Positions 19,953 through 41,504 of a stretch of DNA of 61,144 nucleotides are shown here, piece after piece (the first letter of the stretch is position 1; each line of letters starts with the position of its first letter). Under the pieces are notes generated by a model. The model was not told the DNA's origin and ran no database searches. It saw only the letters and a list, made by a program, of their open reading frames with translations. The DNA comes from an uncultured Bacilli bacterium (GTDB lineage Bacteria; Bacillota_I; Bacilli_A; RF39; UBA660), in NCBI GenBank assembly GCA_944358825.1, contig CALVSA010000003.1:1-61144 (forward strand), written 5' to 3'. The position numbers and the translations under genes were made by a program.

Positions 19953-19972
19953 AAAATAACCTAGTTATTTTC
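19952..19972 (+). terminator. Intrinsic terminator after ftsZ
   Basis: GAAAATAAC-cta-GTTATTTTC 9-bp stem, followed by TTTTT. Confidence 0.65.
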
Positions 19973-20053
19973 TTTTTGTATATATTTAACTGGTATTTTA
20001 ACTGTTATTAATTTTGATAATTTATATATAATTATTGTGTTTAAGGAGTATAT

Positions 20054-20497: not shown

Positions 20498-20567
20498 AAT
20501 ACTTGTTGTTTATAATTTTTTATATTAAAACTATAAATTGTAACATAAAATGTTTTAAGGTGATGTT

Positions 20568-21821
20568 ATGTTTTCTAAAGCAATACATAAGCGTATTAAA
20601 ATAGTTTTATTAGTTATAATTTTTTTGTTTGTTTTAATTGTTTGTAAAGTTTTTTATATCCAAGTGATTGATTATGATAAATTAAATGACTTGGCTAATT
20701 CTTTATGGAGTAGGAATTTACCAATTGAAGCAGATCGTGGACGTATTTATACTAGTGATAGTAAAGTAGTTGCAGATAATTTAACAACTGTTAGTTTAGT
20801 GTTGATTCCTAATCAAATAAAAGATAAAGAAAAAGTAGCACAAGATATAGCTAGTATATTAGAAGTTGATGTAGAAGCGATTAATGAGCATATTTATAAG
20901 AAGTCTTCTATAGAAAGAGTTCATCCAGAAGGAAGAAGATTATCTTATGAAGTAGCAGATAAGATTAATGCTCTAAATTATGATGGGGTATATTTAGTTA
21001 AGGAAGCTAAAAGGTATTATCCTAATGATTTTTTACTTTCTCATGTTTTAGGATATGTTGGAATTGATAATCAAGGACTTAGTGGTTTGGAGTTACAATA
21101 TGATACATATTTAACTGGGGCAGCAGGGGCAATTAAATATTATTCGGATGCAAAGGGGCAACGATTACGTCTTGCTGAATCTTATGTTGAACCACAAAAT
21201 GGAATGGATATTTATTTAACTGTCAATTATGATATTCAAACTTCTATAGAAAGAGAACTTAGTAATGTTATGGAGAAATATAATGCCGATGGGGCATGGG
21301 CAATTGCAATGGAACCTTCGACGGGAAAGATTTTGGGTATGGCTTCTTATCCGTCTTTTAATCCTAATAATTATCAAGATTATAGTATTGAAGAGATTAA
21401 TCGTAATTTAGCTATTTGGGCTACTTATGAGCCTGGTAGTACTTTTAAGATTGTAACTTTGGCAAGTGCTCTAGAAGAAGATGTAATTAGTTTAGATGAT
21501 ACTTTTTATGATGGTGGTTCAGTTAGGGTTGAAAATGCTCGTATTAAATGTTGGAAGCATGGAGGTCATGGACAACAAACTTTTTTAGAAGTGGTCCAAA
21601 ATAGTTGTAATCCTGGTTTTGTTGAAATAGGACAGAGACTAGGAAAAGAAAATTTGTTTAAATATATTGAAAATTTTGGTTTTGGTGATAAGACTGGTAT
21701 TGATTTAAATGGAGAGGGGAAGGGAATATTATTTTCTCTTGATAAAGTAGGTCCAGTTGAACTTGCTACTTCTAGTTTTGGTCAGGGTGTATCAGTTACT
21801 GCAATTCAACAAGTTGTCTAA
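20568..21821 (+). CDS. spoVD: N-terminal fragment (415 host-encoded codons) of a split class B penicillin-binding protein, SpoVD/PBP2B-like
   Basis: TM anchor, the PBP dimerisation region (RGRIYTSD..., LGYVGIDNQGLSGLE), SxxK as STFK and SxN as SCN. The ORF ends ...GQGVSVTAIQQ followed by VV* read from the inserted DNA. The KTG motif is absent. Confidence 0.9.
   Translation: MFSKAIHKRIKIVLLVIIFLFVLIVCKVFYIQVIDYDKLNDLANSLWSRNLPIEADRGRIYTSDSKVVADNLTTVSLVLIPNQIKDKEKVAQDIASILEVDVEAINEHIYKKSSIERVHPEGRRLSYEVADKINALNYDGVYLVKEAKRYYPNDFLLSHVLGYVGIDNQGLSGLELQYDTYLTGAAGAIKYYSDAKGQRLRLAESYVEPQNGMDIYLTVNYDIQTSIERELSNVMEKYNADGAWAIAMEPSTGKILGMASYPSFNPNNYQDYSIEEINRNLAIWATYEPGSTFKIVTLASALEEDVISLDDTFYDGGSVRVENARIKCWKHGGHGQQTFLEVVQNSCNPGFVEIGQRLGKENLFKYIENFGFGDKTGIDLNGEGKGILFSLDKVGPVELATSSFGQGVSVTAIQQVV
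21796..21820 (+). other. attL of element 1
   Basis: Host half-site TTACTGCA (21796-21803), shared core CAACAA (21807-21812) and element-end inverted repeat GTTGTCTA (21813-21820). Confidence 0.7.
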
Positions 21822-22001
21822 TAAATGATACCCTTACTATAACAAGAGGATTAAATAGTAAATATACCAAAAAATATGATGTTGAGTATGAGTATAGGTG
21901 CTTGATAAATATATAAGTCTAAAATTGCTAAATGATTATAATTTAGTAATTTTTTTGTGGATGTTTAATTTTAAACATTTTAAATGATATAATAAATATT
22001 A

Positions 22002-22922
22002 TTGGAGTTGATTATTATTAATACATTATTATTTGAAGAACACACAGATATGTTGTTAGAAATACTTGAAAAAAGTAACATAGATAATAAAGAAAAAGAA
22101 TATCGAAAAAATGAATTATTAAAAGTTTATAGTAAGATGGTAGAAACTAGAAAAATTGATAATAAATATTATAATATTTCACATGAAATAAGAACTTTGG
22201 ATTTTCTTTCTAATTTTAATAATTTATATATTACACAAGATCATCTTAGTAAACCAGGATGTGATTTTAAAATATCTGACAAGTATGAGATAGAATGCGT
22301 TTGCAGTTCATCTGGAAATGAAAAATTAAATGGTCTAAATAAATTTCATGGAAGTGGTATGTTTGATTATAATAAAAAGGAACAAATTATATTAACTAGA
22401 TTAACTCAATCGATAAAAGAAAAAAAACAATTTTATATTGAACATATTAATAATGGAACTATATCAGTTAATATGCCTTATATTATATTTTTAGGACTTG
22501 GTAATTTATCATATGAAACATTTGCTGGAACTTTTGGTTTTTTATTAAATAAAATATTGTTTGGCGTTGGTCAAGAAGTTTTACTTATAAATAAGAAAAC
22601 TAATAAAGTTGAAAAAGTCGAGTATTCACATAATTTAAACATTAAAAAGCATAATGGAGTCGAAATAGATTGTAATATATTTTGTAATAGCGATTATGAT
22701 TGTGTAAGTGGAATACTTTTTTCTACAGCTAGCTTAGGTGAAAAATATAATAAAAATAATACATTTTTATTTATTAATCCCCATGCAAAAAATAAAATCA
22801 AAGCATATGATTTTCCAAATATTATATATTGGAAAGCAAAAAAAGAAAATAACAATTACATTTACTTACCAAGATATAGAGGAAAAAATTTAAATAATTA
22901 TTTAAAAAAACATTATTGGTAA
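22002..22922 (+). CDS. Hypothetical protein (306 aa)
   Basis: TTG start preceded by the SD ttggag. No confident domain. The segment GCDFKISDKYEIECV is only vaguely nuclease-like. Confidence 0.4.
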   Translation: MELIIINTLLFEEHTDMLLEILEKSNIDNKEKEYRKNELLKVYSKMVETRKIDNKYYNISHEIRTLDFLSNFNNLYITQDHLSKPGCDFKISDKYEIECVCSSSGNEKLNGLNKFHGSGMFDYNKKEQIILTRLTQSIKEKKQFYIEHINNGTISVNMPYIIFLGLGNLSYETFAGTFGFLLNKILFGVGQEVLLINKKTNKVEKVEYSHNLNIKKHNGVEIDCNIFCNSDYDCVSGILFSTASLGEKYNKNNTFLFINPHAKNKIKAYDFPNIIYWKAKKENNNYIYLPRYRGKNLNNYLKKHYW

Positions 22923-23022
22923 AAGATATTTAATTTTACACTTAATTGATAATTAATCTTAATAATATATTTTCAAACACGATTAAATATGATATAATTT
23001 AATCGTGAAAGGAAACAATAAT

Positions 23023-23610
23023 ATGGAATACAGAAATAAGATTTTAAATTTATTTAAAAATGATTACTTAACGACTAAAGATGTTAATAAAAATAATATT
23101 CCAAGATTTTATTTAACTAAACTTATTAAAGAAAATAAAATAGAAAGAGTAAGTCGTGGAGTATATATTAAGAAAAATGAACTAGTTGATGAGTTTGTGA
23201 TTTTGCAAAGCAAAAGTAAAAATGCTATTTACTCAAATACAACTGCTTTATATTTGCACGGCTTTTCTAATAGAATTCCTATTAAATATGATATTACTAT
23301 TAATAGTGGTTATAATGGTTCTCTTCAAAAGGAAAATAATGTTAATTTATTTTATACAAAAAGAGAATTATTAGAGTTAGGAGTAATTAACTATAAATTA
23401 GATTCTGGTAATATTATTAGAGTTTACGATTTAGATAAAACTATTTGCGACATTATTAAAAATAAAAAGAAAATAGATGCTGAAATTTTTAATAAGGCTA
23501 TTAGAGGATATTTTTATAGTAAAAAGAAAAATGCGTTAAAACTATATGAATATGCTAAAAAAATGAATATTTATAATAAAGTAATGGATACTTTCGAGCT
23601 GCTTGAATAA
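23023..23610 (+). CDS. AbiEi-like (type IV TA antitoxin family) DNA-binding protein, with no AbiEii partner
   Basis: MEYRNKILNLFKNDYLTTKDVNKNNIPRFYLTKLIKENKIERVSRGVYI... is the typical AbiEi_4 N-terminal wHTH. ATG 23023 follows the SD gaaagga. Confidence 0.65.
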   Translation: MEYRNKILNLFKNDYLTTKDVNKNNIPRFYLTKLIKENKIERVSRGVYIKKNELVDEFVILQSKSKNAIYSNTTALYLHGFSNRIPIKYDITINSGYNGSLQKENNVNLFYTKRELLELGVINYKLDSGNIIRVYDLDKTICDIIKNKKKIDAEIFNKAIRGYFYSKKKNALKLYEYAKKMNIYNKVMDTFELLE

Positions 23611-23651
23611 ATAAGAATACAAAAAACATAATTTAATAAATGAGGTTATAT

Positions 23652-24440
23652 ATGAAAAATGGATTTGAAATTTTATTAACTTATTGGTATGGCATACCTT
23701 CAATGCCAGAAAAACGTATTACAAAAATAAAGAATGCAGGATTTAAATATTTATCACTACATTGGTGTGATGAGTATGAATCTTCAAATGGCAAAAAAGA
23801 AGAAATTTTTAATAAGTGCAAATTAAATGGCTTACAAATATTGGTATTTCATTTGCCTTTTGAAAAAGCAAATGATTTATGGAAAAATGATGCTTCTGGC
23901 AGACAATTGTTTAGCATTTATAAGCAAAGCATATTAGATGCACATAATAATGATGTTGAGTATGTGGTTATGCATTTAAACTCTGATTCTAAAAAACTCG
24001 AAAATATCGAAATTGGTTTAAAAAGAATAGCTGCATTATTAAAATATGCCGAAGAACTTAATGTAAATATTGCTTTTGAAAATTTACAAACAGAAGATCA
24101 ATTAGATAAAATTGAAGACATGTTAAATAATTATTCAAGTGCATGTTTATGCTTTGATGTAGGTCATAACAATATTAAATATAGTGATTTTATTAATTTA
24201 CATAAAGAAAAAATCAAAATAATGCATATTCATGATAATTTAGGAAAAACTGATACTCATCAAACACCTTTTACTGGTACCGTGAATTGGAAAAAAGTAT
24301 ATAATTTAATTAAAGAAATAAATAATCATTGCTTATTTGTGTTTGAAGTGCAGAAGCAAGCGAATGAAGAAGAAACCCCTTTTTTAAAAAATGTATATCT
24401 TGCTTATGAAAAAATGAAAAAAGATTTAGAAAAAAATTAA
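23652..24440 (+). CDS. Xylose isomerase-like TIM-barrel protein (sugar phosphate isomerase/epimerase, inosose dehydratase-type fold)
   Basis: Pattern of VMHL, IAFENL, CFDVGH and MHIHDN metal-ligand-like motifs. Confidence 0.65.
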   Translation: MKNGFEILLTYWYGIPSMPEKRITKIKNAGFKYLSLHWCDEYESSNGKKEEIFNKCKLNGLQILVFHLPFEKANDLWKNDASGRQLFSIYKQSILDAHNNDVEYVVMHLNSDSKKLENIEIGLKRIAALLKYAEELNVNIAFENLQTEDQLDKIEDMLNNYSSACLCFDVGHNNIKYSDFINLHKEKIKIMHIHDNLGKTDTHQTPFTGTVNWKKVYNLIKEINNHCLFVFEVQKQANEEETPFLKNVYLAYEKMKKDLEKN

Positions 24441-24455
24441 AGGAGAGATATTTAT

Positions 24456-25685
24456 ATGGGTAAAAATATTACATTAGTTTTAAAAGAAGATTTGGGACAT
24501 ACAAATTTTGAAATTGTCGAAAGAAAAGGCCAAGGTCATCCAGATACTTTGAGTGATACTTTAGCTGAAAAATTATCAAATGCTTATTCTAAATATACTT
24601 TGAAACATTTCGGAGCCGTTTTACATCACAATTTTGATAAAGTAGGAATGATGGGAGGTAAGTGTGAGGTTGAATTTGGCCATGGGAAAATGATAGAACC
24701 TATAAGAGTTTTATTAAATGGTCGTGCATCTAGTAAATTTGGTAATACTATAATAAATGTAAAAGAGCTTCTTATTAATGAGACCAAAAAGTTTTTTAAC
24801 GATAACTTTCCAATGCTTAATTTTGAAAAAGATGTTAGAATCATATATGAAGTTAGTGAAGGAAGTAGTCCTGGTGGTGTAAAAGGACATGAAAGTAAAA
24901 GACATAGATGGTTTGAGCCAGAAACTTTAGATGACCTTAATGAATTAAAACATCTTAATTGTAATGATACTTCAATGGGATGTGCGTTTTATGGATATAG
25001 TATATTAGAAAACATGGTGTATAAATTGGAAAGAAAATTAAATTCAAAAGAATTTAAGAAAAATCATATATGGCTAGGTTCTGATATAAAAATTATGGGT
25101 TTTAGAGAGGATAATAAAGTGAGTATTACAATGTGCATACCTCAATTATGTACTTATGTAAGGAATGTTACAGAATATTTAAATAATAAAGCTCAAATAG
25201 CGGAATATATTAAAACCTTTATTCATAGTTTATATCCAAATGTACAATTGGAATTGTATATTAATACAAGAGACAAAATTGATGAAAACAACACTGATTT
25301 ATATTTAACATTTACTGGTTCATCAATTGAAATGGGTGATGAAGGATTTGTTGGACGTGGTAATAGGATGGGAGGATTAATAACTCCAAGAAGATTTTAT
25401 ACAATGGAAGGCATTTGCGGGAAAAACCCTATTTATCATACTGGGAAAATGTATTGTGTTGCCTCATATATAATTGCAAAAAAAATATATGAGAAATGTG
25501 GAGTTAATTGTTCAGTAGAAATGATTGGTCAAAGTGGGCAGCCTTTATCTGACCCATTTAAAATTACTATTTATACCGATAAAAAAATTGATTATGATGT
25601 TTGTGATAAAATTGCAAGTAATGTATTAAATGACTTTGGTAAAATATCAATGGAGATTTTAGATGAAAAATATCCAATGTGTTAA
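24456..25685 (+). CDS. Archaeal-type S-adenosylmethionine synthetase (methionine adenosyltransferase, PF01941-like)
   Basis: EIVERKGQGHPDTLSD, LHHNFDKV, NDTSMG, SDIKIMG, LTFTGSSIEMGDEGFVGRGNRMGGLITP and GKNPIYHTGKMY align convincingly with the Methanocaldococcus MAT sequence as I recall it. Confidence 0.85.
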   Translation: MGKNITLVLKEDLGHTNFEIVERKGQGHPDTLSDTLAEKLSNAYSKYTLKHFGAVLHHNFDKVGMMGGKCEVEFGHGKMIEPIRVLLNGRASSKFGNTIINVKELLINETKKFFNDNFPMLNFEKDVRIIYEVSEGSSPGGVKGHESKRHRWFEPETLDDLNELKHLNCNDTSMGCAFYGYSILENMVYKLERKLNSKEFKKNHIWLGSDIKIMGFREDNKVSITMCIPQLCTYVRNVTEYLNNKAQIAEYIKTFIHSLYPNVQLELYINTRDKIDENNTDLYLTFTGSSIEMGDEGFVGRGNRMGGLITPRRFYTMEGICGKNPIYHTGKMYCVASYIIAKKIYEKCGVNCSVEMIGQSGQPLSDPFKITIYTDKKIDYDVCDKIASNVLNDFGKISMEILDEKYPMC

Positions 25686-26610
25686 TATTCCAGATAAATA
25701 TGCTCCATATAGTATTGAAATTGAATTAACAAACTATTGTAATGCTCACTGTGTTTTTTGTCCTAATAATTGTTCAAAAAGGGAAAGAGGATTTATTGAT
25801 AAACAAAAATTATATGATTTTTTAGAAAAACAAAAAGCAATTAAAGTTAATAATTGGTTTAATAAAAAATTTAACACTTTAGATTTTCCAAAGATAGTAT
25901 ATGCAGGGTTAGGTGAACCACTTTTGCACCCAGATTTTTTAGAAATAGTTAAATACACTAAAGAACTAGGGTTTCAAGTAGAAATAGTAACTAATGGTTT
26001 ATTACTAAATAAAAAAATTGTAGATAAATTGATAGAATTAAAAGTTGATTCTCTAGCAATTAGTCTACATAGCATGAATAAAGAAATTTATAATAAAATT
26101 ACAGGACTGTCTTTAAATAATGTTTTACCAAACGTTACTTATGCTTTAGAACAATATAAAAAAACCAATGCAAAAATTCAACTATGGCGAATAAAGCCCC
26201 TTTCAAACATGAAACAAGAAACAAAAAAAGATGAGGAAATATATAAAGAATATGTAAAATCATATCCTAATGTTATTGTATTAGGACCATCAGAGCCTTG
26301 GGAACGAGACATGAATAATCCTACTTCTTGTAATTTAGTAAATGATGATCCAAGTAATGGAATATGGTGTAGAAAATTGTATTATACCTTAAATATTGCA
26401 TATACTGGAGAAATTGTAATGTGTTGTAATGATTTTAATAGAATTTCTGTTAATATGGGAAACATCTTTGAATCTGAAAATCTTTCGGAAACTATAAGAG
26501 AAAAGATTCTAAATAAACAATTTATTCCAGAAATATGCAAAAAATGTCGAAGATGGAAAGATAATGAATTAGAAGAAATATTTGAAAAATATGGTGATAA
26601 AAATGAATAA
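25663..26610 (+). CDS. Radical SAM enzyme with a Cys-rich C-terminal (SPASM/twitch-like) extension
   Basis: CxxxCxxC as LTNYCNAHCVFC. A GLGEPLL glycine-rich motif. C-terminal cysteines (WCRK, MCCND, CKKC). Overlaps the SAM synthetase gene by 23 nt. Confidence 0.85.
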   Translation: MKNIQCVNIPDKYAPYSIEIELTNYCNAHCVFCPNNCSKRERGFIDKQKLYDFLEKQKAIKVNNWFNKKFNTLDFPKIVYAGLGEPLLHPDFLEIVKYTKELGFQVEIVTNGLLLNKKIVDKLIELKVDSLAISLHSMNKEIYNKITGLSLNNVLPNVTYALEQYKKTNAKIQLWRIKPLSNMKQETKKDEEIYKEYVKSYPNVIVLGPSEPWERDMNNPTSCNLVNDDPSNGIWCRKLYYTLNIAYTGEIVMCCNDFNRISVNMGNIFESENLSETIREKILNKQFIPEICKKCRRWKDNELEEIFEKYGDKNE

Positions 26611-27331
26611 AAAGAGAATATTATTATTTTGTGCCCATCCAGATGATGCTGAATTATGTGCTGGTGGAACAATAAAAAAATTTGTAAGCAAAGGTTATAA
26701 AGTTAAAGTTGTAATTATGACTAATGGTGGTGTAGGAAATAACGATATGAACGTTTCTAAAACAGTAGATATTAGAAACGTAGAGATGCAAAATGCGGCA
26801 AGTTTTTTAAATTATGAAGTTAAAAATTTAAATATAAACGATGGTGAAGTGTTACCTACATTAGAATATAGAAAACTTGTTATTGATGAAATAAGAAAGT
26901 TTAAACCAGATATTATTATGACTCATAGAAGCAATGATTATCACCCAGATCATCGATACACAAGTATATTAGTTCAAGATTCATTAGTACTAATTTGTAC
27001 TGGAAATTATTGTCCAACATATAGTCCTTTAAATTATACCCCAATAACTTTATTTTTCTGGGATAGGTTTACGAAGCCAAATTCATTTAATGCTGATATT
27101 GTATATGATATAACAAATGAATTTGAAGATAAAGTAGAAGCTTTATCAAAACACAAATCACAATATAAAAGTATAGATGAATGTAGAAATGTTTTAATTG
27201 ATATTAATAATGAGTTGAAACAAAATATTGAATCAAGCTACAAATATATTGAAGCATTTGAAATTTGTGAGTATGCAAAAAAAGATGAATTAATAGCATT
27301 TTTAGAGTCAAAAAGCAAAATTTTTGGTTAG
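26603..27331 (+). CDS. PIG-L/LmbE-family N-deacetylase
   Basis: ILLFCAHPDDAELCAGG and DYHPDHRYTS motifs. Confidence 0.85.
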   Translation: MNKKRILLFCAHPDDAELCAGGTIKKFVSKGYKVKVVIMTNGGVGNNDMNVSKTVDIRNVEMQNAASFLNYEVKNLNINDGEVLPTLEYRKLVIDEIRKFKPDIIMTHRSNDYHPDHRYTSILVQDSLVLICTGNYCPTYSPLNYTPITLFFWDRFTKPNSFNADIVYDITNEFEDKVEALSKHKSQYKSIDECRNVLIDINNELKQNIESSYKYIEAFEICEYAKKDELIAFLESKSKIFG

Positions 27332-27342
27332 GAGTAGATAAA

Positions 27343-28551
27343 ATGAAAGTTTTGTTAATATCAAATTATAATATTGTCGAAGGTAGAGGCCCAATGTTTA
27401 GATTAATGAATATGATTCCATATTTAAATACAAAATGCAATATAGAATTGTGTTCATTAGGCAAGATTGATGACGTAGTAATAAAAATGGCATTAGAAAA
27501 CAAGATTAAATATTATGAAATCAGTTATAAAACAAAAGGGTGGTTTGTTAAAAATACTAAAGAAATAGCTAATAATATAATTGATATAGCAAACCAAGAT
27601 AATATAGATTTAATTGTTTTGACTTGGGAAATTTGGGATGTCGCAGTAGCTTTACAGAATAATATAAGTAAATGTAATGCAAAATTAGTAATAACTATGC
27701 ATTCTATCCCTTTTGTTGCTGCATCAATTAAGACAGGTAATTATGTAATAGATTATATAAAGAAAATTTTATTTGAACCACGATTTATGATTAAAAAATA
27801 TTTAGTTTGTCGCATTCCACAAGTAAATCATTATATGCATAAATTTAATATATTAACAATGACTAAAACGGTAGAATATAAATTAAATAAATACTTTAAA
27901 AATATTAATTTGTATTTAGCATATCCAGGGTATGCTACTAGTCTACCATTAATACCACAAAACATAAATTATCAATATGATTTTGTTTATATGGCGAAAT
28001 TTGAATATGGTAAAGGTATATATGAAATCATTAAAATAATGAAAGAAATAAAAAAAGTAAAACCCAATTTCAAATTAGCTTTAGTTGGTGATTTTACATT
28101 TAAAGATGAAGAAATCAAATTTTTTAATCGAATAAAAAAATTTGATTTAGAAAATAATATAAATTATTTAGGTTGGCTGGATGGTACAAAAAAATATGAA
28201 ACCATTATAAATAGCAAAATATTTTTATATCCTTCATTTGCAGGAGATACGTTTTCAATTTGTTTGTTAGAAGCACTTTCGTGTGGTAAACAAATTGTTT
28301 GTTACAATGTTCCTTTTGTAAGAGATAATTTTAATATTAAAACTGTACATAAAATTCCAGTATTTAAAAATAAGTTATTTGCCCAAAAAGCAATTGAACT
28401 TTTAAAAGAAAAAAATTACAATGTTAATGAATCAATTAATTTTGTAAAAAATAACTTTTCTTCATGGAATAAAGTGGCTAATGCAGAATATAATGCATAT
28501 AAAAATATTATGGATAATAAAAATGGACAAACAAATATTAAAAGATTATAA
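27343..28551 (+). CDS. GT-B fold glycosyltransferase (GT4/GT1-like)
   Basis: C-terminal FLYPSFAGDTFSICLLEALSCGKQIVCYNVPF (EX7E-type region). Confidence 0.75.
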   Translation: MKVLLISNYNIVEGRGPMFRLMNMIPYLNTKCNIELCSLGKIDDVVIKMALENKIKYYEISYKTKGWFVKNTKEIANNIIDIANQDNIDLIVLTWEIWDVAVALQNNISKCNAKLVITMHSIPFVAASIKTGNYVIDYIKKILFEPRFMIKKYLVCRIPQVNHYMHKFNILTMTKTVEYKLNKYFKNINLYLAYPGYATSLPLIPQNINYQYDFVYMAKFEYGKGIYEIIKIMKEIKKVKPNFKLALVGDFTFKDEEIKFFNRIKKFDLENNINYLGWLDGTKKYETIINSKIFLYPSFAGDTFSICLLEALSCGKQIVCYNVPFVRDNFNIKTVHKIPVFKNKLFAQKAIELLKEKNYNVNESINFVKNNFSSWNKVANAEYNAYKNIMDNKNGQTNIKRL

Positions 28552-29350: not shown

Positions 29351-29352
29351 AA

Positions 29353-30489
29353 ATGAATTATAAGGAATTTGAACAAATAATAATAGGTTATATGCAAGCA
29401 AAAGGATGGACTTTATCTATTGCTGTTGATGGCTCGGAAAGACTTGCTTTAGAAAAAAATTATAATCCTAATTTTACCAATAAATCAAAAGATAAATTTT
29501 TGATAAATGATGATGAATTTTATGATAGATTAAAAAAGGGATTAGATAAATTAAATATTACATATAAAAATTTTAATTCCATTGATAATCCGTATACAGA
29601 TACCGATTTTATTGTTGCTGGATTACAAACCATAAATCCTATTATATATGGCAGTTCTGAAGTACAACTTGATAAATGGATTTCTTTTCAACCAGTTATT
29701 AGATTAATTGAAAAAGATAAATGCGGAGTGGAGGAAGGATATTTTTCTTCCTTTGTCAATGTTTGTGAAATTTCGACAAATACAAATTATGCTGACTATA
29801 TTCAAGATATTGAAAATTGGATTGATATTTTATCTATCTGTTCTCTACATTCAAGTGGTTTACAATTAATTTTAAAACCAACTACCACAGCATATAATGG
29901 AGTAGGATTAGAATTTAATTATAAAGGCTTGGAACTTGGTCAAGCAAATTTATATAATTTTAATATTAATGAACAAAATGTAATGATGTCTGACTTTGGA
30001 TTTGGCTATGAGAGAATTTTGTGGGCAATTAATGGCGGAAAAAATTTTTTTGCACCATTTGTATCTAAATATGATTATTTATTTGGCGATTTAAAGGAAG
30101 TTGATAGAATAAGAACACTTACTTTAATGGCAATGTCTGGTATTAAAGGTGGTTCATCTGGCAAATCAAAACACATGAGAAATTTAGTTAAAGAAGCTTT
30201 TGGGATTAATATTATTCCTAACATTAACGAACAAATAAAACAGTATTATGAATTTTATTCAAAATTTATTTCTTCATTGATTGAATTAAATGAAGTAAAT
30301 GGTATAATTAATAATGAAGTAGCATTGAATATAAAGAAAAAAATATTAAAACAAGCAGGCATTAGTAATTATTCATCTTTAAGCAGTGCAGATATTGAAA
30401 CTGTTTGTAAAACAATTTTTCTTGACAAAGTGCACAAAGAGAATAAATTTACAAAAATAAAGGAAATTAAAGGAGGTAAAAGAAAATGA
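29353..30489 (+). CDS. Stand-alone class IIc (AlaRS-like) aminoacyl-tRNA-synthetase catalytic-core homologue; candidate amino acid ligase
   Basis: The order of segments VAGLQTI / QPVIRL / YFSSFVNVCEIS / NYADYIQDIENWIDIL / LGQANLYNF / SDFGFGYERILWAINGG parallels AlaRS AGM..F / QKCIR / HHTFFEMLGNFS / DYFK..AI.WAW / EIWNLVF / DTGMGLERL. At 378 aa it has no room for the tRNA-binding or editing domains. Confidence 0.5.
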   Translation: MNYKEFEQIIIGYMQAKGWTLSIAVDGSERLALEKNYNPNFTNKSKDKFLINDDEFYDRLKKGLDKLNITYKNFNSIDNPYTDTDFIVAGLQTINPIIYGSSEVQLDKWISFQPVIRLIEKDKCGVEEGYFSSFVNVCEISTNTNYADYIQDIENWIDILSICSLHSSGLQLILKPTTTAYNGVGLEFNYKGLELGQANLYNFNINEQNVMMSDFGFGYERILWAINGGKNFFAPFVSKYDYLFGDLKEVDRIRTLTLMAMSGIKGGSSGKSKHMRNLVKEAFGINIIPNINEQIKQYYEFYSKFISSLIELNEVNGIINNEVALNIKKKILKQAGISNYSSLSSADIETVCKTIFLDKVHKENKFTKIKEIKGGKRK

Positions 30490-31100
30490 AATTATTATTA
30501 GCAGGTGGTGGAGAACCTGAACAAGTGAAACCACTAGACGAATATTTTGCAAATTACGTAAAAGAAGGTAAGGTTTTATATATTCCTGTTGCAATGTACA
30601 AAATTCCTTATGATGAATGTGAAAGTTGGTTTAGGGAAACATATGCAAAATATAATATATATAATATAGATGTATGTACAGATTTGAAAAAGGCTCCCAA
30701 TTTAAATGAATATAAAGCCGTATTTATAGGAGGAGGAAACACTTTTAAATTATTAAAAGAAATTAAAGAAAGTAATTTCGATTATGCTCTTACAGAATAT
30801 TTAAAAAATGGAGGCTTTGTTTATGGTGGTTCAGCTGGTGCTATTATTTTTGGAAAAACAATAAAAACTTCTAGCCATGCCGATAAAAATTTTGTTAATC
30901 TTAAAGATTTAAATGGTTTAAATTTAATAAAAGGATATGATGTTTGGTGTCATTATAATGAAAAAAAGGATTTAAATAATGTTTTAAAATTAGAAAATTC
31001 TACTGTTGTACTTTATGAAGAATCTGGTGTTTTATTTGATGGCGAAAAATTTATAACAGTTGGTAAAAATCATTTAATTTTTCCTGATGATTTTGAATAG
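30486..31100 (+). CDS. Peptidase S51 (dipeptidase E/cyanophycinase-like) family protein
   Basis: FIGGGNTFKLL and the nucleophile elbow YGGSAGAIIFG. Confidence 0.7.
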   Translation: MKLLLAGGGEPEQVKPLDEYFANYVKEGKVLYIPVAMYKIPYDECESWFRETYAKYNIYNIDVCTDLKKAPNLNEYKAVFIGGGNTFKLLKEIKESNFDYALTEYLKNGGFVYGGSAGAIIFGKTIKTSSHADKNFVNLKDLNGLNLIKGYDVWCHYNEKKDLNNVLKLENSTVVLYEESGVLFDGEKFITVGKNHLIFPDDFE

Positions 31101-31168
31101 ATATAAAAATTTATATTCAAAGAAAAATAGTTTAAATATACGTTTTAATCATAAAGGTGGTGTTTTAA

Positions 31169-32107
31169 ATTTTTAAAAGTGATGAACAAGAGCAAGAATA
31201 TATTTTAAAGTTAAATGAAATATTAAGTGCTTTTCTTAAATCTAATGAGAAAATAGTAGAAATAGAAAACACTTCTGGGGGTATTGCTAATAAAGTTATT
31301 AAACTTACTACTAACTTTAATCATAAATATATATTCAAAATTTATAAAAAGAAAAGGAATCAAATACTTCCATTTGAACTAATGGACTTTTTAGAAGAAA
31401 ATGATATAAATGTTGTAAAACCTAAAAATAAAAAACCAATTATCTTTGAAAACACGGATTGTTATTTATTTGATTATATAGAAAATGTTCCAACAATTTT
31501 TGATAATGCAACGGCATCTTATTTAATTAATCTTTTAAAGATAATTTCAAGATTTAAAACATCCATCAATAATGATGAATATTATTATAAAATAAAATGC
31601 GATAATGAATATAAACTTTTAAAGGAAAAGAAAAATTATATACTCGATGATGATATTGTTAATCGAGTTTTAAAAAGATATGATCAAATTAAAAATCTAC
31701 CTATAAATAATGAAAAGGAGATAGTTCATTCTGATATTAGTACATCAAACTTATTGACAGCAAAAGATGGATACTATTTAATTGATTTTGATGAAGTTAG
31801 ATTTACTTCTAAATTATATGATTTGGCAGTTATTTTGGTAAAATTTTTCTTCGATGGTAAAAATATTGATATAAAAAATGCTAAATCATTCGTTGATTTA
31901 TATTTGAAAAATTTTAGCGAATATGATTATAAAGACTGTTACAATGTTTTTGAATATTATGTTGTAAAACAATTATTAGAAAAATTTTCGGATTATGAAA
32001 TATATGGTATTGATTTATATTCAAAGCAACAGCAACAAGATGATTTTAGAAATTGGATTTATTATTTTGAACATTTAAATTTAATTAAACAAATTTTTGG
32101 TTTATAA
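31169..32107 (+). CDS. APH-family kinase with no canonical start codon for its N-lobe (possible ATT start)
   Basis: The frame is open from 31169. The N-lobe (NTSGGIANKVIKL..., YIFKIY) lies upstream of the first ATG at 31382. The catalytic motif is VHSDISTSNLL...LIDFDE. The SD aaaggtgg is at 31153-31160. Confidence 0.55.
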   Translation: MFKSDEQEQEYILKLNEILSAFLKSNEKIVEIENTSGGIANKVIKLTTNFNHKYIFKIYKKKRNQILPFELMDFLEENDINVVKPKNKKPIIFENTDCYLFDYIENVPTIFDNATASYLINLLKIISRFKTSINNDEYYYKIKCDNEYKLLKEKKNYILDDDIVNRVLKRYDQIKNLPINNEKEIVHSDISTSNLLTAKDGYYLIDFDEVRFTSKLYDLAVILVKFFFDGKNIDIKNAKSFVDLYLKNFSEYDYKDCYNVFEYYVVKQLLEKFSDYEIYGIDLYSKQQQQDDFRNWIYYFEHLNLIKQIFGL

Positions 32108-32179
32108 TTTATGTAAAATTTAAAAATTTAATCAACATAAAATAAGCACATTATGACATGAATTAGACATAAAATAAAC

Positions 32180-32207
32180 TTGACTCCGTTTTGTCAAGTG
32201 CTATAAT
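32180..32207 (+). promoter_or_regulatory. Near-consensus sigma-A promoter with extended -10, overlapping a 6-bp inverted repeat
   Basis: TTGACT (32180-32185), a 16-nt spacer, then TGcTATAAT (-10 at 32202-32207). CTTGAC...GTCAAG is a dyad across the spacer. Confidence 0.6.
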
Positions 32208-32233
32208 ATAGTAAAATATTAAGAAATTATGTG

Positions 32234-32261
32234 GAGAGGAACTAAATTCTTCTCTTTTTTT
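32234..32261 (+). terminator. Strong intrinsic terminator only about 30 nt downstream of that promoter
   Basis: GAGAGGAA-ctaaa-TTCTTCTC (8 bp including one G-U pair), followed by a T7 run. Confidence 0.65.
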
Positions 32262-32324
32262 CTTTGAAAGAAGGTGTTATATAAAATAAAATTAAAGGAA
32301 GCACATATTTTTGATGAATTAGTA

Positions 32325-32580
32325 ATAAGTGGTCACTATTTATAAAAATAGTAGCCACTTTTTTTGTTGGCATTACAAGAACATTTATATATGAGTAGCC
32401 ACTTCTACTTATAAAAGTAGTCATTTTTGCAAGTGCAAAAATAGTAGTGACACCACTATAATCCCTATATTTTATAAAAGGTAAATGAATATGTGGTGTC
32501 GTTCTTCTTATGCTCATTAAAAATATGCAGTATTTTTACTATAAAAAACACCCCCAAAATAGCAAAAGTGGCTACTCATA
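32325..32580. repeat. Iteron-like repeats of the (A/T)AGTAGCCACTT family, direct and inverted
   Basis: aatagtagccacttttt (about 32347), atgagtagccacttct (32391-32404), aaagtagtcattttt, aatagtagtgacaccact, the inverted copies aagtggtcactattt (about 32327) and aaaagtggctactcat (about 32565). Confidence 0.7.
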
Positions 32581-32603
32581 ATTTTAAGAAAGGAAAAATA
32601 AAT

Positions 32604-32921
32604 ATGATATTTAGAACAAATAAAATTACAAATTATACGAAGATTGATAATAGATATTTGGAAGATAAAAACATTTCTTTAAAGGCTAAAGGATTATTAA
32701 CTTTAATGTTATCTTTACCAGATAATTGGAAATTTAATGTTAATGGTTTATGTCTTTTATGTAAAGAAAGTAAAAATGCAGTTAATAGCGCAATAAAAGA
32801 ATTAAAGGAAAATAAATATTTAGAGGTAGAAAAAACTTATGATGAAAGTGGGAGATTTATTTATGAATATATCATTTATGAATATCCAGATGACCCAAAA
32901 GGACATCTCGATTTACCATAA
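32604..32921 (+). CDS. Winged-helix replication-initiator/DnaD-like N-terminal domain protein (short)
   Basis: MIFRTNKITNYTKIDNRYLEDKNISLKAKGLLTLMLSLPDNWKFNVNGL...AVNSAIKELKENKYLEV resembles Firmicute phage/plasmid replisome-organiser N-termini. ATG 32604 is preferred (SD aaaggaaaa). Confidence 0.5.
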   Translation: MIFRTNKITNYTKIDNRYLEDKNISLKAKGLLTLMLSLPDNWKFNVNGLCLLCKESKNAVNSAIKELKENKYLEVEKTYDESGRFIYEYIIYEYPDDPKGHLDLP

Positions 32922-33187
32922 CTGGATAATTAGATACTATTAATAACTAATATATTAATAAATTAAAAATAAATAGATAAAGTTGATAAAACAAAAATTT
33001 AATTTTTTAATAAAAACCTCTTGAAAATTCTATTTTTTTAAGTGATAAATATTAAAACAAAAAATTAGTTTATTGATACTTAATTTAACCTACAAGAGGT
33101 TTTAATATTGTTCATAATCAGTTATTAGTATAAAAATTTAAAGCCTCTTAAAATGGCTTAAATTAAAAATGAAAGGATGTGCTTAAT

Positions 33188-33613
33188 ATGTATTTAAAAA
33201 ATGCAACTAATGAGGTTAAAAAAATAACAGAGAAAATAATTGAACTGGATAAGGAAAATAAACTTAAATTTATCAGTTATGTTTTAAACTTATGGAATAA
33301 TAATCAAATTAATAGTTTAAATGAAACTAACCCTGATTTATTAGATGATAGTATTTGTATTGATATATTTAATCCAAGTAGTATTGATTACTATTATTTA
33401 GTAATTAAACTAAATGAATATTGGAATTATAAATATAAACTTTATCAGCTTTATCGAAAAGAATATAAAAGTGTAATAACTTTATTTGAAAAGTTATCTT
33501 TTAAAGAAAAGATAGATGTACTTGCAGAAATATTTTTAATTTTAGAACATGATAAATTACTACCAGATAATGTTGATGGCTATGAAATTGCTAGAATGAT
33601 TATAAAATATTAA
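33188..33613 (+). CDS. Hypothetical protein
   Basis: ORF with the SD aaaggatg. No recognisable domain. Confidence 0.4.
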   Translation: MYLKNATNEVKKITEKIIELDKENKLKFISYVLNLWNNNQINSLNETNPDLLDDSICIDIFNPSSIDYYYLVIKLNEYWNYKYKLYQLYRKEYKSVITLFEKLSFKEKIDVLAEIFLILEHDKLLPDNVDGYEIARMIIKY

Positions 33614-33636
33614 ATATTGAAAAACTAAATTGTTAT

Positions 33637-33704
33637 TTGAAAACTTAATATTTTCGGATAATAATTTAGTCTAATTTTGTCCTTATAAGGTATTAAGTTT
33701 TCAA
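33637..33704. repeat. 12-bp perfect inverted repeat enclosing a 10-bp palindrome, upstream of the recombinase operon
   Basis: TTGAAAACTTAA (33637-33648) pairs with TTAAGTTTTCAA (33693-33704). CCTTATAAGG at 33681-33690 lies between them. Confidence 0.8.
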
Positions 33705-33778
33705 TTTTTGTAGAACTTATTACCTTAAGTTCTTTTTTAGTTTTTATAAAAATAAACTTAAAAGAAAGGACAGAGTAT

Positions 33779-33985
33779 ATGGAAATTACAAATAAAATTC
33801 CATCTAGAATAATTGAATTAGAAACAAGTATCAAACTGCTTGAATACTTAAAAAGAAAAAATGTTATAGATGATGGAATGTATAACTTTTGTATTAATAA
33901 ATTAATGAATAAACTTACATTGGAAAAAAGTAAAATGAAAGATGATTATATAAATAATATTGATAATTACAAAATATTAACTTAG
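33779..33985 (+). CDS. Small hypothetical protein immediately upstream of recombinase 1 (candidate accessory factor/RDF)
   Basis: 68-aa ORF ending 10 nt before the recombinase ATG. No motif recognised. Confidence 0.35.
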   Translation: MEITNKIPSRIIELETSIKLLEYLKRKNVIDDGMYNFCINKLMNKLTLEKSKMKDDYINNIDNYKILT

Positions 33986-33995
33986 GAGGTAACTC

Positions 33996-35675
33996 ATGGA
34001 CTTATATACAGTTAGGAATAATATTATGAAAGGTATTCCCTTGCAAGAATTAAAGTTAAATGTTTGTTTTTATGCCAGAGTATCAACAGATAAAGATGAG
34101 CAGTTGCATTCCTTATCTGCTCAAGTATCTTTTTTTAATGATTATATAAGTAAAGTTCCTAACTGGCACTTTATAGGTTCCTATATTGATGAAGGTATTA
34201 GTGGAACATCAGTTAAAAAACGTGAAGAATTTTTAAGAATGATAGAAGATGCTAAAAAGCATAAGTTTGATTTAATATTAACGAAAGAAATATCCAGGTT
34301 TTCAAGAAGTACTTTGGATAGTATCAAATATACACAGGAGTTATTGCAAGATGGTGTTGGGGTCTATTTTTTAAATGATAATATTAATACTATCTTACCT
34401 GATTCCGAACTTAGACTTACAATAATGTCATCGATTGCTCAAGATGAGGTGCGAAAACTATCAGAAAGAGTATCTTTCGGTATGAAAAGAAGTATTGATA
34501 GTGGTACTGTGTTAGGTTGTTCCAATATTTATGGTTATGTAAAAGATAAAGGAAAACTTGTTATTGATGAAAAAGAGGCTAAAATGATTAAAATTATCTT
34601 CGATAGATATGCCAATACCACCGATGGTTTATCTAAAGTATCAAAGTATTTATATAGCTTAGGTTATAAAAATAAAAAGGGTAAAAGAATAGATACAACG
34701 ATACTAACTAGAATTATTGAAAATCCTAAATATAAAGGATATTATTGTGGTCATAAAACGAAAGTATTAGATTACCGTACTAAAAAGAAGAAAAAATTAA
34801 ATGAATCGGATTGGATTATTTATAAAGATAACGAAAATGTCCCACCAATCGTATCGGAAGAATTATGGAAAAGAGCTAACAAAAAATTAAAAGAAAGGCA
34901 AGATAGTTTTACTAATAGAGCAGTTAATAAAAAAGTATTTCAAAATAGATATACTTATTCAGGTAAAATTTATTGTGGATGTCATAATCTTACATATCAT
35001 AGATCATCTGCTGGTAAAAGAAAAAATAATCCTGTATGGGAATGCCAAGTATATAGAAAAGAAAGTTTAAAGGGTTGTTCTAATCCTAGAGTGTTTGAAT
35101 CTGAATTAGATATAATTTTTAAGGATATGCTTGGTAAATTATTGAAAAAAAGAAAGTATATTTTCGATGACATATTAAATGACTGTAAAAATTATTTAGA
35201 AACCAATAATAATGAATCTGAAATAAAAAATATAGAATCTAAAACTTTAATGTTTAATAATAAAAAAGATAAATTATTAGAACTTGTTATGGAAGAATAT
35301 ATATCTAAAGAAGATTATAAAAAACAAATAGATTTAATTAATGAAGAAATAATTACTAATCAAACAAAACTAAATGAATTACAAAATAATAAGCAAGATA
35401 AAAACTATATAGAAAATAAAATTAAGGAACTAAAAAAGATGTTAGATAATTGTTTAACTGATGATAAGTGTTTCAGTGATATATTTAATGAATTGATTGA
35501 TAGAATTTATGTTTATAAAGAAAAGGACAAAAAGATAAAACTAGATATTTATATAAAAACAGGAGAAAGTGTTAATACATTCTCTGATAATTTAGGTAGA
35601 AAGTTTCATTTAATAGACAACGTTACAACAAATAACTGCAGTAAGTGCAGCAATCAATGGAGGAACTTTGTATAA
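33996..35675 (+). CDS. Large serine recombinase (resolvase catalytic domain, recombinase domain, zinc ribbon, coiled coil)
   Basis: FYARVSTDKDEQLHSLSAQ catalytic Ser region, LTKEISRFSRS, IENPKYKGYY, Cys cluster CGCH...C...C, and a Lys/Glu-rich coiled coil. Strong SD taggaggt. The last 14 sense codons are read from host PBP DNA beyond attR. Confidence 0.92.
   Translation: MDLYTVRNNIMKGIPLQELKLNVCFYARVSTDKDEQLHSLSAQVSFFNDYISKVPNWHFIGSYIDEGISGTSVKKREEFLRMIEDAKKHKFDLILTKEISRFSRSTLDSIKYTQELLQDGVGVYFLNDNINTILPDSELRLTIMSSIAQDEVRKLSERVSFGMKRSIDSGTVLGCSNIYGYVKDKGKLVIDEKEAKMIKIIFDRYANTTDGLSKVSKYLYSLGYKNKKGKRIDTTILTRIIENPKYKGYYCGHKTKVLDYRTKKKKKLNESDWIIYKDNENVPPIVSEELWKRANKKLKERQDSFTNRAVNKKVFQNRYTYSGKIYCGCHNLTYHRSSAGKRKNNPVWECQVYRKESLKGCSNPRVFESELDIIFKDMLGKLLKKRKYIFDDILNDCKNYLETNNNESEIKNIESKTLMFNNKKDKLLELVMEEYISKEDYKKQIDLINEEIITNQTKLNELQNNKQDKNYIENKIKELKKMLDNCLTDDKCFSDIFNELIDRIYVYKEKDKKIKLDIYIKTGESVNTFSDNLGRKFHLIDNVTTNNCSKCSNQWRNFV
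35614..35644 (+). other. attR of element 1
   Basis: Element-end repeat TAGACAAC (35614-35621), core CAACAA (35626-35631) and host half-site TGCAGTAA (35637-35644). Confidence 0.7.
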
Positions 35676-36291
35676 ACCTTATATTGTTGATAGTATTGTA
35701 GAACCAGAAACTGGAGAAATTATTCAGAAATTTGAACCAACGAAAGTAAGAAGTGTTATTAGTAGTAATACTAGTGAAGAAGTTAGATTAATATTAGAGA
35801 AAGTAGTTGCTTATGGAACTGGTCGTAATGCTTTTATCGAAGATTATCGTGTCGGCGGTAAAACTGGAACAGCACAAAAGGTTAATAATGGTGCTTATAT
35901 GGTAGGAAATTATATTTTATCTTTTATTGGTTTTTTACCCGCTAATGATCCAAAGGTAATAGTATATGTTGCAGTTGATAATCCTAAAGGAATAACACAA
36001 TATGGAGGAACAGTATCTGCACCAATTGTTAAAGCTATTTTAACTGATGCTATTAGTGCTTTAGATATTGAAAAACCATCTGGAGGTTTAGAAAAAGAAT
36101 ATCAATGGTATGAAAAAGAATATATTAAGCTTCCTAATGTAGTTGGAATGACTTTGGATGAAGCAAAAAAAGTATTATCTGATTTTACTATTGAATATAC
36201 TGGTAGTGGAAAGGTAGTAAAATCGATGTCTCCATCTAGTGGAACTTCTGTGATGCTTGGAAGTAAAGTACGACTTATGTTAGGTAATTGA
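35632..36291 (+). CDS. spoVD: C-terminal fragment of the split SpoVD/PBP2B-like PBP (KTG motif plus one PASTA domain)
   Basis: The frame is open from 35632: ITAVSAAINGGTLYKPYIVDS..., GGKTGTAQK, and the PASTA-like LPNVVGMTLDEAKKVL...GSKVRLMLG. There is no start codon or SD of its own at the junction. Confidence 0.9.
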   Translation: MTAVSAAINGGTLYKPYIVDSIVEPETGEIIQKFEPTKVRSVISSNTSEEVRLILEKVVAYGTGRNAFIEDYRVGGKTGTAQKVNNGAYMVGNYILSFIGFLPANDPKVIVYVAVDNPKGITQYGGTVSAPIVKAILTDAISALDIEKPSGGLEKEYQWYEKEYIKLPNVVGMTLDEAKKVLSDFTIEYTGSGKVVKSMSPSSGTSVMLGSKVRLMLGN

Positions 36292-36375
36292 CAAATTCTT
36301 ATGTAAAATACCTTAAAATGAGACAAAAAGTTACAATAAGTATGTTATAATCTTATTAGAAATGGAAGTGAAATT

Positions 36376-37368: not shown

Positions 37369-37380
37369 AAAGAGGGGGTT

Positions 37381-38373: not shown

Positions 38374-38409
38374 ACATTGCAAGGTAACTGATTACGACAA
38401 ACAAATTTT

Positions 38410-38428
38410 TCCCTTATTTTATAAGGGA
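38410..38428 (+). terminator. Hairpin just inside the left end of element 2 (possible read-through terminator)
   Basis: TCCCTTAT-ttt-ATAAGGGA 8-bp stem. The downstream T-tract is weak. Confidence 0.35.
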
Positions 38429-39885: not shown

Positions 39886-39897
39886 ATTATCTATTTT

Positions 39898-41442: not shown

Positions 41443-41504
41443 TTTTTAATTGATTTTTCTTTATAAAAGCTTTATAATATACTGCGATAGCTGGTGGTGA
41501 GTAT

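Follow-up and report, generated by a model that had tools for sequence, protein, structure and literature searches.

Two unrelated large serine recombinase islands split the neighbouring genes spoVD and spoVE of an uncultured Bacilli bacterium

Sporulation intervening elements, of which skin, SPbeta, vfbin, vrin, gin and yin have been named, are described to interrupt the genes sigK, spsM, spoVFB, spoVR, gerE and yabG (PMC10747680, PMC4191935), with yin representing a further precedent of this kind (PMC10747680). Here, we report on a stretch of 61,144 nucleotides from an uncultured Bacilli bacterium (contig CALVSA010000003.1 of the assembly GCA_944358825.1, called the window in the following), in which the gene of a SpoVD-type penicillin-binding protein (PBP) is split by an island carrying a large serine recombinase (LSR), named element 1. 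The neighbouring gene spoVE, encoding the SEDS partner of this PBP, is split likewise by a second, unrelated LSR island named element 2. Full-text searches of the literature retrieved no report of spoVD or spoVE as target of an intervening element, the available target lists stemming from papers up to 2023, and both genes would represent two new targets for a known kind of developmental gene rearrangement.

The skin element of Clostridioides difficile, which is located in sigK and served by the LSR CD1231 and the recombination directionality factor (RDF) CD1234, resembles our islands in its size of 14.6 kb, the position of the LSR at one end, the in-frame cut of a mother-cell gene and its strain-variable presence (PMC5025042; 10.1101/2022.02.25.481979). 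CD1234 is a protein of 72 amino acids without homologues that is controlled by sigma-E and SpoIIID (PMC5025042), and a small open reading frame (ORF) of element 1, ORF68, resembles it in position and size. While skin gates the regulator sigK, the islands described here would gate an enzyme through spoVD and spoVE; they also differ from skin by the lack of phage-like genes and by a recombinase ORF that runs over the right attachment site attR into host DNA. The gin element in gerE of Bacillus cereus ATCC 10987 is similar to our islands as it is no prophage, encodes serine recombinases along with the accessory proteins GirC and GirX and carries restriction-modification defence cargo, which illustrates that intervening elements need not derive from phages (PMC5595907). 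With 28.6 kb, three recombinases, a 225-bp regulator gene as target, a 9-bp overlap and an occurrence confined to the B. cereus group, gin nevertheless differs from the present families, which span many genera of uncultured gut Bacilli.

SPbeta, inserted in spsM of Bacillus subtilis and served by SprA and SprB, relies on an LSR and an RDF as well and shows that a single element may both spread and reconstitute its target in the mother cell (PMC4191935). In contrast to SPbeta, virion and lysis genes were not detected by Pfam among the ORFs of either island. SPbeta itself is an active phage of 134 kb. The staphylococcal cassette chromosomes, mobilized by the Ccr-type LSRs, share with our islands a cargo without own transfer machinery and a single site in a conserved chromosomal gene, rlmH. 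They insert at the 3' end of rlmH, however, so that the gene is not destroyed and no reconstitution is involved.

The split spoVD gene and its intact alleles

In the integrated state, the spoVD 5' ORF (20568..21821) ends with ...GQGVSVTAIQQ, followed by VV* read from 21813-21821, and the same strand resumes at 35632 with ITAVSAAINGGTLYKPYIV..., followed by KTGTA and a PASTA domain. Both junctions contain CAACAA, at 21807-21812 and 35626-35631, and removal of the 13,819 bp from 21813 to 35631 generates an ORF of 1,905 nt encoding 634 amino acids. An initial annotation of the window had proposed these fragment coordinates, the repeated hexamer, the in-frame deletion and an LSR gene at the right end of the element (33996..35675), all of which were confirmed by reading the junctions, by translation and, for the recombinase, by its Pfam domains. 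A search with the joined protein retrieved the natural protein P0001, which is 634 aa long and 100% identical, as well as P0002 at 99% identity and hundreds of further homologues of 634-654 aa with 58-83% identity; the 5' fragment is identical to residues 1-415 of P0001. Pfam assigned to the joined protein a single Transpeptidase match (residues 245-552, covering profile positions 3-298 of 299) besides PBP_dimer and one PASTA domain, and the SxxK, SxN and KTG motifs are all present. As the split falls between SxN and KTG, neither fragment is a complete transpeptidase, which supports the consequence drawn in the initial annotation.

The uninterrupted allele is found in natural DNA. On the contig that encodes P0001 (L001, ENA ERZ2915975) the neighbours are the same, namely ftsA, ftsZ, a 147-aa ORF, the PBP gene and mraY, and its DNA aligns to window positions 13124-21812 at 99.7% identity and directly thereafter to 35626-37901 at 99.3%. 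The two alignments share exactly six bases, CAACAA, and the same holds true for a second contig, L002; both empty-site contigs are devoid of exactly the segment 21813..35631. The empty site reads ...GTTACTGCAATTCAACAAATAACTGCAGTAAG... and matches the prediction. The source contig of the window is metagenome-derived, and an assembly or binning artefact would have joined unrelated DNA inside the genes to a chimeric contig. The probability of such an event is negligible, as 14 contigs carry the N-terminal fragment of exactly 417 aa, 33 contigs from several sources carry the 330-aa spoVE fragment described below and the anatomy of both junctions is that expected of recombinase sites; the recurrence of the same junctions across independent assemblies, including other samples and genera, refutes it.

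Among proteins of solved structure, the best relative of the joined PBP is C. difficile SpoVD (7RCZ) with 410 bits, the runner-up being an entry named "PBP1" with 232 bits; FtsI and PBP2x proteins are all much more distant. The alignment to 7RCZ is ungapped through the junction (sfgqgvsvtaiqqitavsaainggtlykpy against SFGQSISVTPIQLITAISSIANGGDLMQPR), as is the alignment to the hundreds of homologues mentioned above, so that the rejoined ORF aligns end to end as anticipated. On the basis of the 7RCZ match, the single PASTA domain and a gene context of the division and cell wall (dcw) type, we assign the joined protein to the SpoVD-type class B PBPs (bPBPs). The pair encoded in the window shares these three properties and the SxxK, SxN and KTG motifs with the SpoVD-SpoVE pairs of C. 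difficile and B. subtilis; it differs from them by the gene order ftsA-ftsZ-orf147-spoVD-mraY-spoVE, which forms a compact division and cell-wall locus, and by its reduced-genome, RF39-type host. In C. difficile, the SEDS/bPBP pair of the dcw cluster serves sporulation specifically, and across Firmicutes, possession of such a dcw pair goes along with sporulation (Shrestha et al., PMC10693644). For the window, the designation of spoVD and spoVE as putative sporulation genes is based on homology and gene context.

Attachment sites and spread of the element 1 family

The junction attP, in which the right end of the element is joined to its left end, was found on three contigs from three samples (L083, L173 and L174). 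They come from relatives with LSRs 93-95% identical and not from the window copy, with a tandem array as an alternative source of the junction. On the basis of these three independent contigs, excision within the element 1 family happens in nature, and the empty-site and circle-junction forms that the initial annotation had suggested looking for are thus both present in public metagenomes. The attP of L083 and L173 reads TAGACGAC-GTTA-CA-CCTT-G(T/C)TGTCTA and that of L174 ...GTTA-CA-ACTT-TCACTCTT..., a fossil left attachment site (attL) in the contig L008 reads CTT-CA-CCTT-ACTGTCTAATAAATGATACCC, and attR has the form ...CA-ACAA-host at all sites. Attachment site attP of the family accordingly follows the pattern TAGAC(A/G)AC-GTTA-[CA]-NNNN-G(T/C)TGTCTA, with the four bases after CA varying between ACAA, CCTT and ACTT. 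From the attP contigs, the fossil attL and the invariant attR together, the 2-bp exchange maps to the first CA of CAACAA; the hexamer shared by the junctions therefore stands, but the crossover is narrowed to its first two bases.

Both arms of attP, TAGACAAC and GTTGTCTA, lie 4 nt from this CA, and attP is therefore symmetric about the crossover. The dyad predicted for the circle is real and conserved in the family. A second predicted dyad, 8 bp long and located in the host site attB (TTACTGCA/TGCAGTAA), is present in this host, but lies off-centre, its two arms being 3 nt and 9 nt away from CA, and is missing from the attB of other hosts, which led us to reject it as a general recognition feature; it is probably incidental. 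CAACAA itself is found in 58 of 82 intact alleles, the remainder being synonymous CAG variants.

LSR1, the recombinase of element 1, comprises the Pfam domains Resolvase, Recombinase and Zn_ribbon_recom with the catalytic serine in the context YARVSTD (RVS), and the PDB relatives of LSR1 and of LSR2, the recombinase of element 2, comprise 3G13, TnpX and SprA. LSR1 has homologues at 83-97% identity in at least 120 protein clusters, and members of both recombinase families occur widely in gut metagenomes. In all four contexts inspected (L084/85, L087, L088/89 and L090), the LSR1 homologue is followed by the spoVD 3' fragment, mraY and spoVE, and the family is dedicated to this one site. The recombinase ORF crosses attR, and its C-terminal tail is therefore frameshifted host spoVD; in the window, the last 14 codons (35632..35673) are spoVD DNA beyond attR, and a protein read across attP would count 579 aa instead of the 559 aa of the integrated form. 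Since the tail differs between the integrated and excised forms, the tail length of a homologue reveals its integration state and host allele. As further evidence of the site dedication, the length classes 1, 4, 8, 11, 14, 19 and 23 were observed among 120 LSR1 homologues, and the classes predicted from this frame of the 82 intact alleles are 4, 8, 11, 14, 19, 20, 22 and 23. With attB, attP and crossover defined, LSR1 is one of two naturally site-dedicated LSRs that the window offers for tool development.

Across hosts, LSR1 is 90-97% identical, whereas the C-terminal PBP fragment, MraY and SpoVE reach only 52-78%. This difference demonstrates that the islands move between species and genera. 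In interrupted loci of three other genera, the spoVD C-terminal fragments keep full open frames. The backbone order of left end, AbiEi, HTH_36 ORF, ORF144, a non-coding leader, ORF68 and LSR is conserved, and the cargo is variable, with about 6 kb holding AbiEi/AbiEii only in L087, an ABC transporter in L083 and, in an element of another host genus (L088), the same nine-gene cluster that is found in the window. This cluster encodes a CbiR-like TIM-barrel protein, an archaeal-type S-adenosylmethionine (SAM) synthetase, a radical SAM/SPASM protein of viperin/MoaA-like type, a BshB-like PIG-L deacetylase, a BshA-like GT4 glycosyltransferase, a kinase-like protein, a 378-aa protein of unknown type, a peptidase S51 and an APH-like protein, and by its gene content looks like a small-molecule pathway, possibly of glycoside- or aminoglycoside-like type. 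AbiEi is an orphan in the window island; its partner AbiEii is kept in the relatives L087 and L008. For gut ecology, this means that defence-like and biosynthetic cargo is carried between genera.

Element 1, with a GC content of 24.0% as compared to 27-30% in its flanks, is a site-specific mobile island with an LSR and neither phage nor conjugative. Pfam detected no capsid, terminase, tail, portal or lysin genes among the ORFs of either island, and a PHROGs scan of ten selected ORFs returned no phage structural genes; in IMG/VR, the relatives of LSR1 are only 38-44% identical. Relaxase, coupling protein and type IV secretion genes were absent by Pfam from 21813..35631 and 38371..53000, an oriT still being possible. 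Within the backbone, the HTH_36 ORF matches PHROG 4707 (replication initiation protein, E = 4e-26) at profile positions 5-106 of 409 only, and ORF144 has no match in Pfam, PHROGs or NCBIfam.

The contig L008 holds a fossil island (5082..9351) that consists of a decayed spoVD 5' duplicate, attL with CA-CCTT, ORF576 and AbiEi/AbiEii. It has no recombinase, and a full-length spoVD is restored downstream at 9914..11908, which suggests selection for a working spoVD. A second, paralogous PBP as target of the family was considered for L008 and rejected, as the AFGHGVSVTDLHL segment represents the decayed spoVD 5' duplicate followed by the island remnant. The contig L007 shows a longer match caused by a partial upstream 5' duplication (L007 9572..9901), which is shorter than that of L008; an insertion at the att site was rejected as explanation for this match.

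The second island in spoVE and the predominance of split alleles

The SEDS gene spoVE, the partner of spoVD, follows 1.1 kb further downstream and is interrupted by element 2. The Pfam FTSW_RODA_SPOVE match on its 5' fragment ends at profile position 324 of 356, and the split precedes the conserved LPFxSYGGS segment. Joining of 37381..38370 to 53001..53096 gives 361 aa identical to the natural protein P0241, whose contig L086 aligns to window positions 35748-38380 and then 52998-53161 at 99.2-99.4%. The site attB2 reads CCTGTTACTGGGGTAACTTTGCC, and, as a run of G encloses the crossover, the boundary of element 2 is uncertain by a few bases. LSR2 likewise combines Resolvase, Recombinase and Zn_ribbon_recom (Pfam) with an RLS serine context, is only 25% identical to LSR1 and is distant kin of TnpX and SprA, reaching 63.8 bits against the structure of SprA (YokA), 9DXH. 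In two species-representative metagenome-assembled genomes (MAGs), L026 and L058, spoVE is interrupted at the same codon, the LSR2 homologue of L058 being 51% identical, and for nine of the ten closest metagenome relatives of LSR2 (48-78% identical) the spoVE 3' remnant GVTLPF(L/I/M)SYGGSS lies about 100 bp downstream. LSR2, for which attB, attL and attR are defined with the crossover in the run of G, constitutes the second such site-dedicated LSR. Small ORF44 upstream of it has no family match in Pfam, PHROGs or NCBIfam, and its role as RDF of LSR2 is speculative.

As a side observation, the cargo of element 2 (38653..51003) encodes a radical SAM/SPASM protein with a weak pVip match, a GFO/IDH oxidoreductase, two NUDIX and two PHP proteins, an adenosine deaminase (CARF_ADA-like), an APH-like protein, a GajB-like UvrD helicase and a UDP-glucose dehydrogenase. 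Judging from these annotations, element 2 may be a defence or nucleotide-modifying island.

Split alleles predominate in this species for both genes. Among the listed members of those 90%-identity clusters to which the proteins of this species belong, we found the 207-aa C-terminal spoVD fragment on about 54 contigs versus about 11 with the intact 634-aa protein, and the 330-aa spoVE fragment on 45 contigs versus 3 with the intact 361/362-aa protein. The fragments are identical in protein to the intact alleles and hence undecayed. With the pair split in most of the population, it cannot be needed for growth. Genome-based prediction of sporulation would score the split genes as missing or truncated, which may be one reason why a "reduced presence" of spoVD was reported for RF39.

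These frequencies bear on two alternatives to developmental excision. The first is a reversible vegetative switch of the active-lysogeny or phase-variation type, toggling a division or elongation PBP-SEDS pair with effects on, for example, envelope or beta-lactam susceptibility and without relation to sporulation. The pair adjoins ftsA-ftsZ and mraY, attP and attB forms both occur in nature, and RF39 has reportedly lost most PBPs (PMC10868615), so that a vegetative role of the pair is conceivable. A growth-essential pair is incompatible with split alleles dominating the assemblies, though, and the PBP is much nearer to SpoVD than to FtsI or PBP2x. Furthermore, LSRs are strongly directional, and re-integration would need maintenance of the circle, for which only a truncated replication-initiator-like ORF is present. 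We therefore regard such a switch as very improbable.

Plain insertional inactivation, the second alternative, deserves more weight, although we still deem it rather unlikely. The conserved spoVD and spoVE motifs would here be mere landing sites, the carriers would be cortex- or spore-defective or belong to a lineage losing sporulation, and excision would be rare, stochastic and for transfer only, with the islands persisting by means of cargo and horizontal spread. The high horizontal mobility, the defence-like and biosynthetic cargo and the reductive evolution of RF39 with its reduced, atypical sporulation gene set (PMC10868615) are in line with this explanation, as are the lack of an assignable sporulation-type promoter for LSR2/ORF44 and the recombinase-less fossil island of L008 next to an intact spoVD. 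The same L008 locus can be read in the opposite direction, since restoration of spoVD after recombinase loss argues for selection on its function. Also speaking against inactivation, split alleles form the majority for both genes, yet their fragments are 100% identical in protein to the intact alleles and show no decay, and the C-terminal fragments in three other genera stay fully open. Two unrelated recombinase families are, moreover, each specialized on one partner of the same sporulation enzyme pair, and the known intervening elements likewise sit inside mother-cell genes.

Table 1. Features of the window with coordinates as positions of the 61,144-nt stretch.
Feature	Coordinates	Strand	Remarks
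Putative -10 element CATAAAAT of the spoVD promoter	20544..20551	+	24 nt before the start codon
spoVD 5' fragment	20568..21812	+	Transmembrane anchor, PBP dimer domain, SxxK (STFK), SxN (SCN)
Crossover dinucleotide CA in attL (roughly 21785..21835)	21807..21808	+	Deduced from attP of L083, L173, L174 and the fossil attL of L008
Element 1	21813..35631	+	13,819 bp; boundary movable anywhere in the shared CAACAA
PD-T7-5-like protein, candidate anti-phage defence	22002..22922	+	PADLOC PD-T7-5, E = 1.6e-11; also in L087
AbiEi antitoxin-like regulator	23005..23610	+	PADLOC AbiEi, E = 1.7e-63
Nine-gene small-molecule-type cargo cluster	23640..32107	+
Short HTH_36 protein, backbone	32493..32921	+	Pfam HTH_36; resembles N-terminal domain of replication initiators
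ORF144, backbone	33179..33613	+	Conserved across the family
Structured non-coding leader, 165 nt	33614..33778	+	Between ORF144 and ORF68
ORF68, candidate RDF	33779..33985	+	Ends 10 nt before the LSR1 start codon
LSR1, large serine recombinase, 559 aa	33996..35675	+	Overlaps attR
attP left arm TAGACAAC	35613-35620		Within attR
Crossover dinucleotide CA in attR (roughly 35605..35655)	35626..35627	+
spoVD 3' fragment	35632..36291	+	Remaining transpeptidase domain with KTG (GGKTGTA), one PASTA
mraY	36376..37368	+	Intact host gene separating the two split genes
spoVE/ftsW (SEDS) 5' fragment	37381..38370	+	330 codons ending ...GLIPVTG, then stop (ORF to 38373)
Element 2	about 38371..53000	+	LSR island, ~14,630 bp
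ORF44, small basic ORF upstream of LSR2	51117..51251	+	Speculative RDF candidate
LSR2, large serine recombinase, 524 aa	51334..52908	+	92 bp from attR2
spoVE 3' fragment	53001..53096	+
SpoIIIAH	55432..55962
GerM	56316..57284

Possible developmental excision and the genomic neighbourhood

Upstream of spoVD, CATA starting at -30 to -21 was found in 57 of 76 regions of the clade, whereas a control window contained it in 10 of 76. Taking the form (C/a)ATA-N3-TT, the motif often stands right behind a terminator; a -35 element is not conserved among these 76 regions. In B. subtilis, promoters of the mother-cell sigma factors E and K carry CATA-N3-T as their -10 signature, and the motif found here may represent the mother-cell promoter -10 element of the clade. 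A position weight matrix (PWM) derived from the spoVD regions scores 8.1 bits at the spoVD site of the window (20542), 13.2 bits 23 nt upstream of gerM (56291), 9.2 bits 38 nt upstream of spoIIIAH (55392) and 8.2 bits at 33749, which is 28 nt before the ATG of ORF68. A scan of 19900..38700 with sigma-70 and terminator consensus sequences returned 155 promoter-like sites versus 157 expected and is uninformative at 25% GC.

The site at 33749 belongs to a conserved structured leader in front of the candidate RDF-recombinase operon of ORF68 and LSR1, where it follows a long hairpin and a terminator-like hairpin. This leader is the most conserved part of the backbone, with 94-100% nucleotide identity versus 80-92% for ORF68, and folds with a minimum free energy of -49.4 kcal/mol (z = -6.8 versus shuffled controls). 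No Rfam family was assigned to it, as searches of the whole window and a permissive scan of 32900..34100 returned only tRNAs and chance matches at miRNA level. ORF68 is conserved in 8 of 8 loci of the family and is predicted as a small helical hairpin (AlphaFold2, pLDDT 84), for which a fold search gave no match at E < 0.1; all of its matches were generic helical hairpins, which speak neither for nor against an RDF role. By position, size and conservation, we consider ORF68 a candidate RDF of LSR1.

Taking these findings together, both islands are probably, though by no means certainly, intervening elements of the skin, SPbeta and gin type, excised in the mother cell by LSR and RDF. LSR1 would have integrated element 1 into the codons of the conserved ...SVT(A/P)IQQ... 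of spoVD by the 2-bp exchange at CA, and LSR2 would have done likewise to spoVE. In growing cells, both genes would be split and inactive, a state that we propose the cells can afford, as spore cortex synthesis would be the only process to require the pair. During sporulation, LSR1 would recombine attL with attR in the terminally differentiating mother cell, aided by a directionality factor for which ORF68, encoded with LSR1 behind the structured leader, is the candidate. The island would leave as a circle and the 634-aa spoVD would be rebuilt exactly under its own mother-cell-type promoter, with LSR2 rebuilding spoVE in the same way. The forespore would retain both islands, which would therefore be inherited, and the islands would additionally spread horizontally together with their defence-like and biosynthetic cargo. 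Notable features are that the genes of both putative cortex synthase partners are cut one after the other in a single genome by unrelated recombinases, that the families of these recombinases are abundant and horizontally mobile in the uncultured gut order RF39, and that the candidate RDF-recombinase operon lies behind a conserved structured leader.

Several points weigh against developmental excision. The PWM finds no site before LSR2 or ORF44 comparable to that in front of ORF68, and because CATA overlaps a TATAAT-like sequence without a conserved -35 element, the assignment of a sigma factor is tentative. ORF68 has no match in Pfam, PHROGs or NCBIfam and no similarity to known RDFs. Mother-cell DNA and DNA of island-free strains are indistinguishable among metagenome contigs, and the high horizontal mobility shows that excision and movement take place in the germ line, too. 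In C. difficile, SpoVD and SpoVE additionally take part in asymmetric septation, at a time when no mother cell has formed yet, and a split gene could not serve this role. As the host is uncultured, its sporulation is a prediction.

A more far-reaching version of the excision scenario is a double lock, in which both SEDS-bPBP partners are split by unrelated islands that both excise in the mother cell, the first one governed by the 165-nt leader as a new cis-regulatory RNA or DNA switch linking the element to host development. We consider this version decidedly doubtful.

The closest genomic relatives of the window, whose G+C content is about 25%, are MAGs labelled uncultured Bacilli, Tenericutes or Erysipelotrichaceae, as well as Clostridium sp. 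CAG:302. CAG-302 has been assigned to the order RF39 (PMC7676259), for which reductive evolution, the predicted loss of most PBPs and predicted spore formation with a smaller and atypical sporulation gene set have been described (PMC10868615). Besides spoIIIAH and gerM, the window encodes a collagen-like GXX-repeat protein (54198..55343, minus strand), whose gene causes a GC spike of 52%, and a neighbouring GT2-TPR glycosyltransferase (53110..54189, minus strand), a pair reminiscent of BclA-type exosporium glycoproteins. Together with the RF39 affiliation, SpoIIIAH, GerM and the BclA-type gene make a spore-forming host likely.

The 147-aa ORF between ftsZ and spoVD has no match in Pfam, PHROGs or NCBIfam. 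In relatives, the dcw-type locus gathers other mobile genes such as an IS110 transposase, a Bro-N protein and a DUF4368-type large serine recombinase (L088 18482..21662), and L003 and L004 carry LSR2-like recombinases of 33-40% identity. Further upstream in the window, a ParA/MinD-like ATPase, a T2SSE ATPase and two T2SSF-domain proteins (1304..5134) resemble a Tad/Com-type pilus or competence-like module, an arylsulfotransferase (ASST) stands beside a thioredoxin-like protein (6668..9161), and a Schlafen AlbA_2/HATPase_c_4 protein (11754..13058, minus strand) is encoded beside tRNA-Leu and tRNA-Met.

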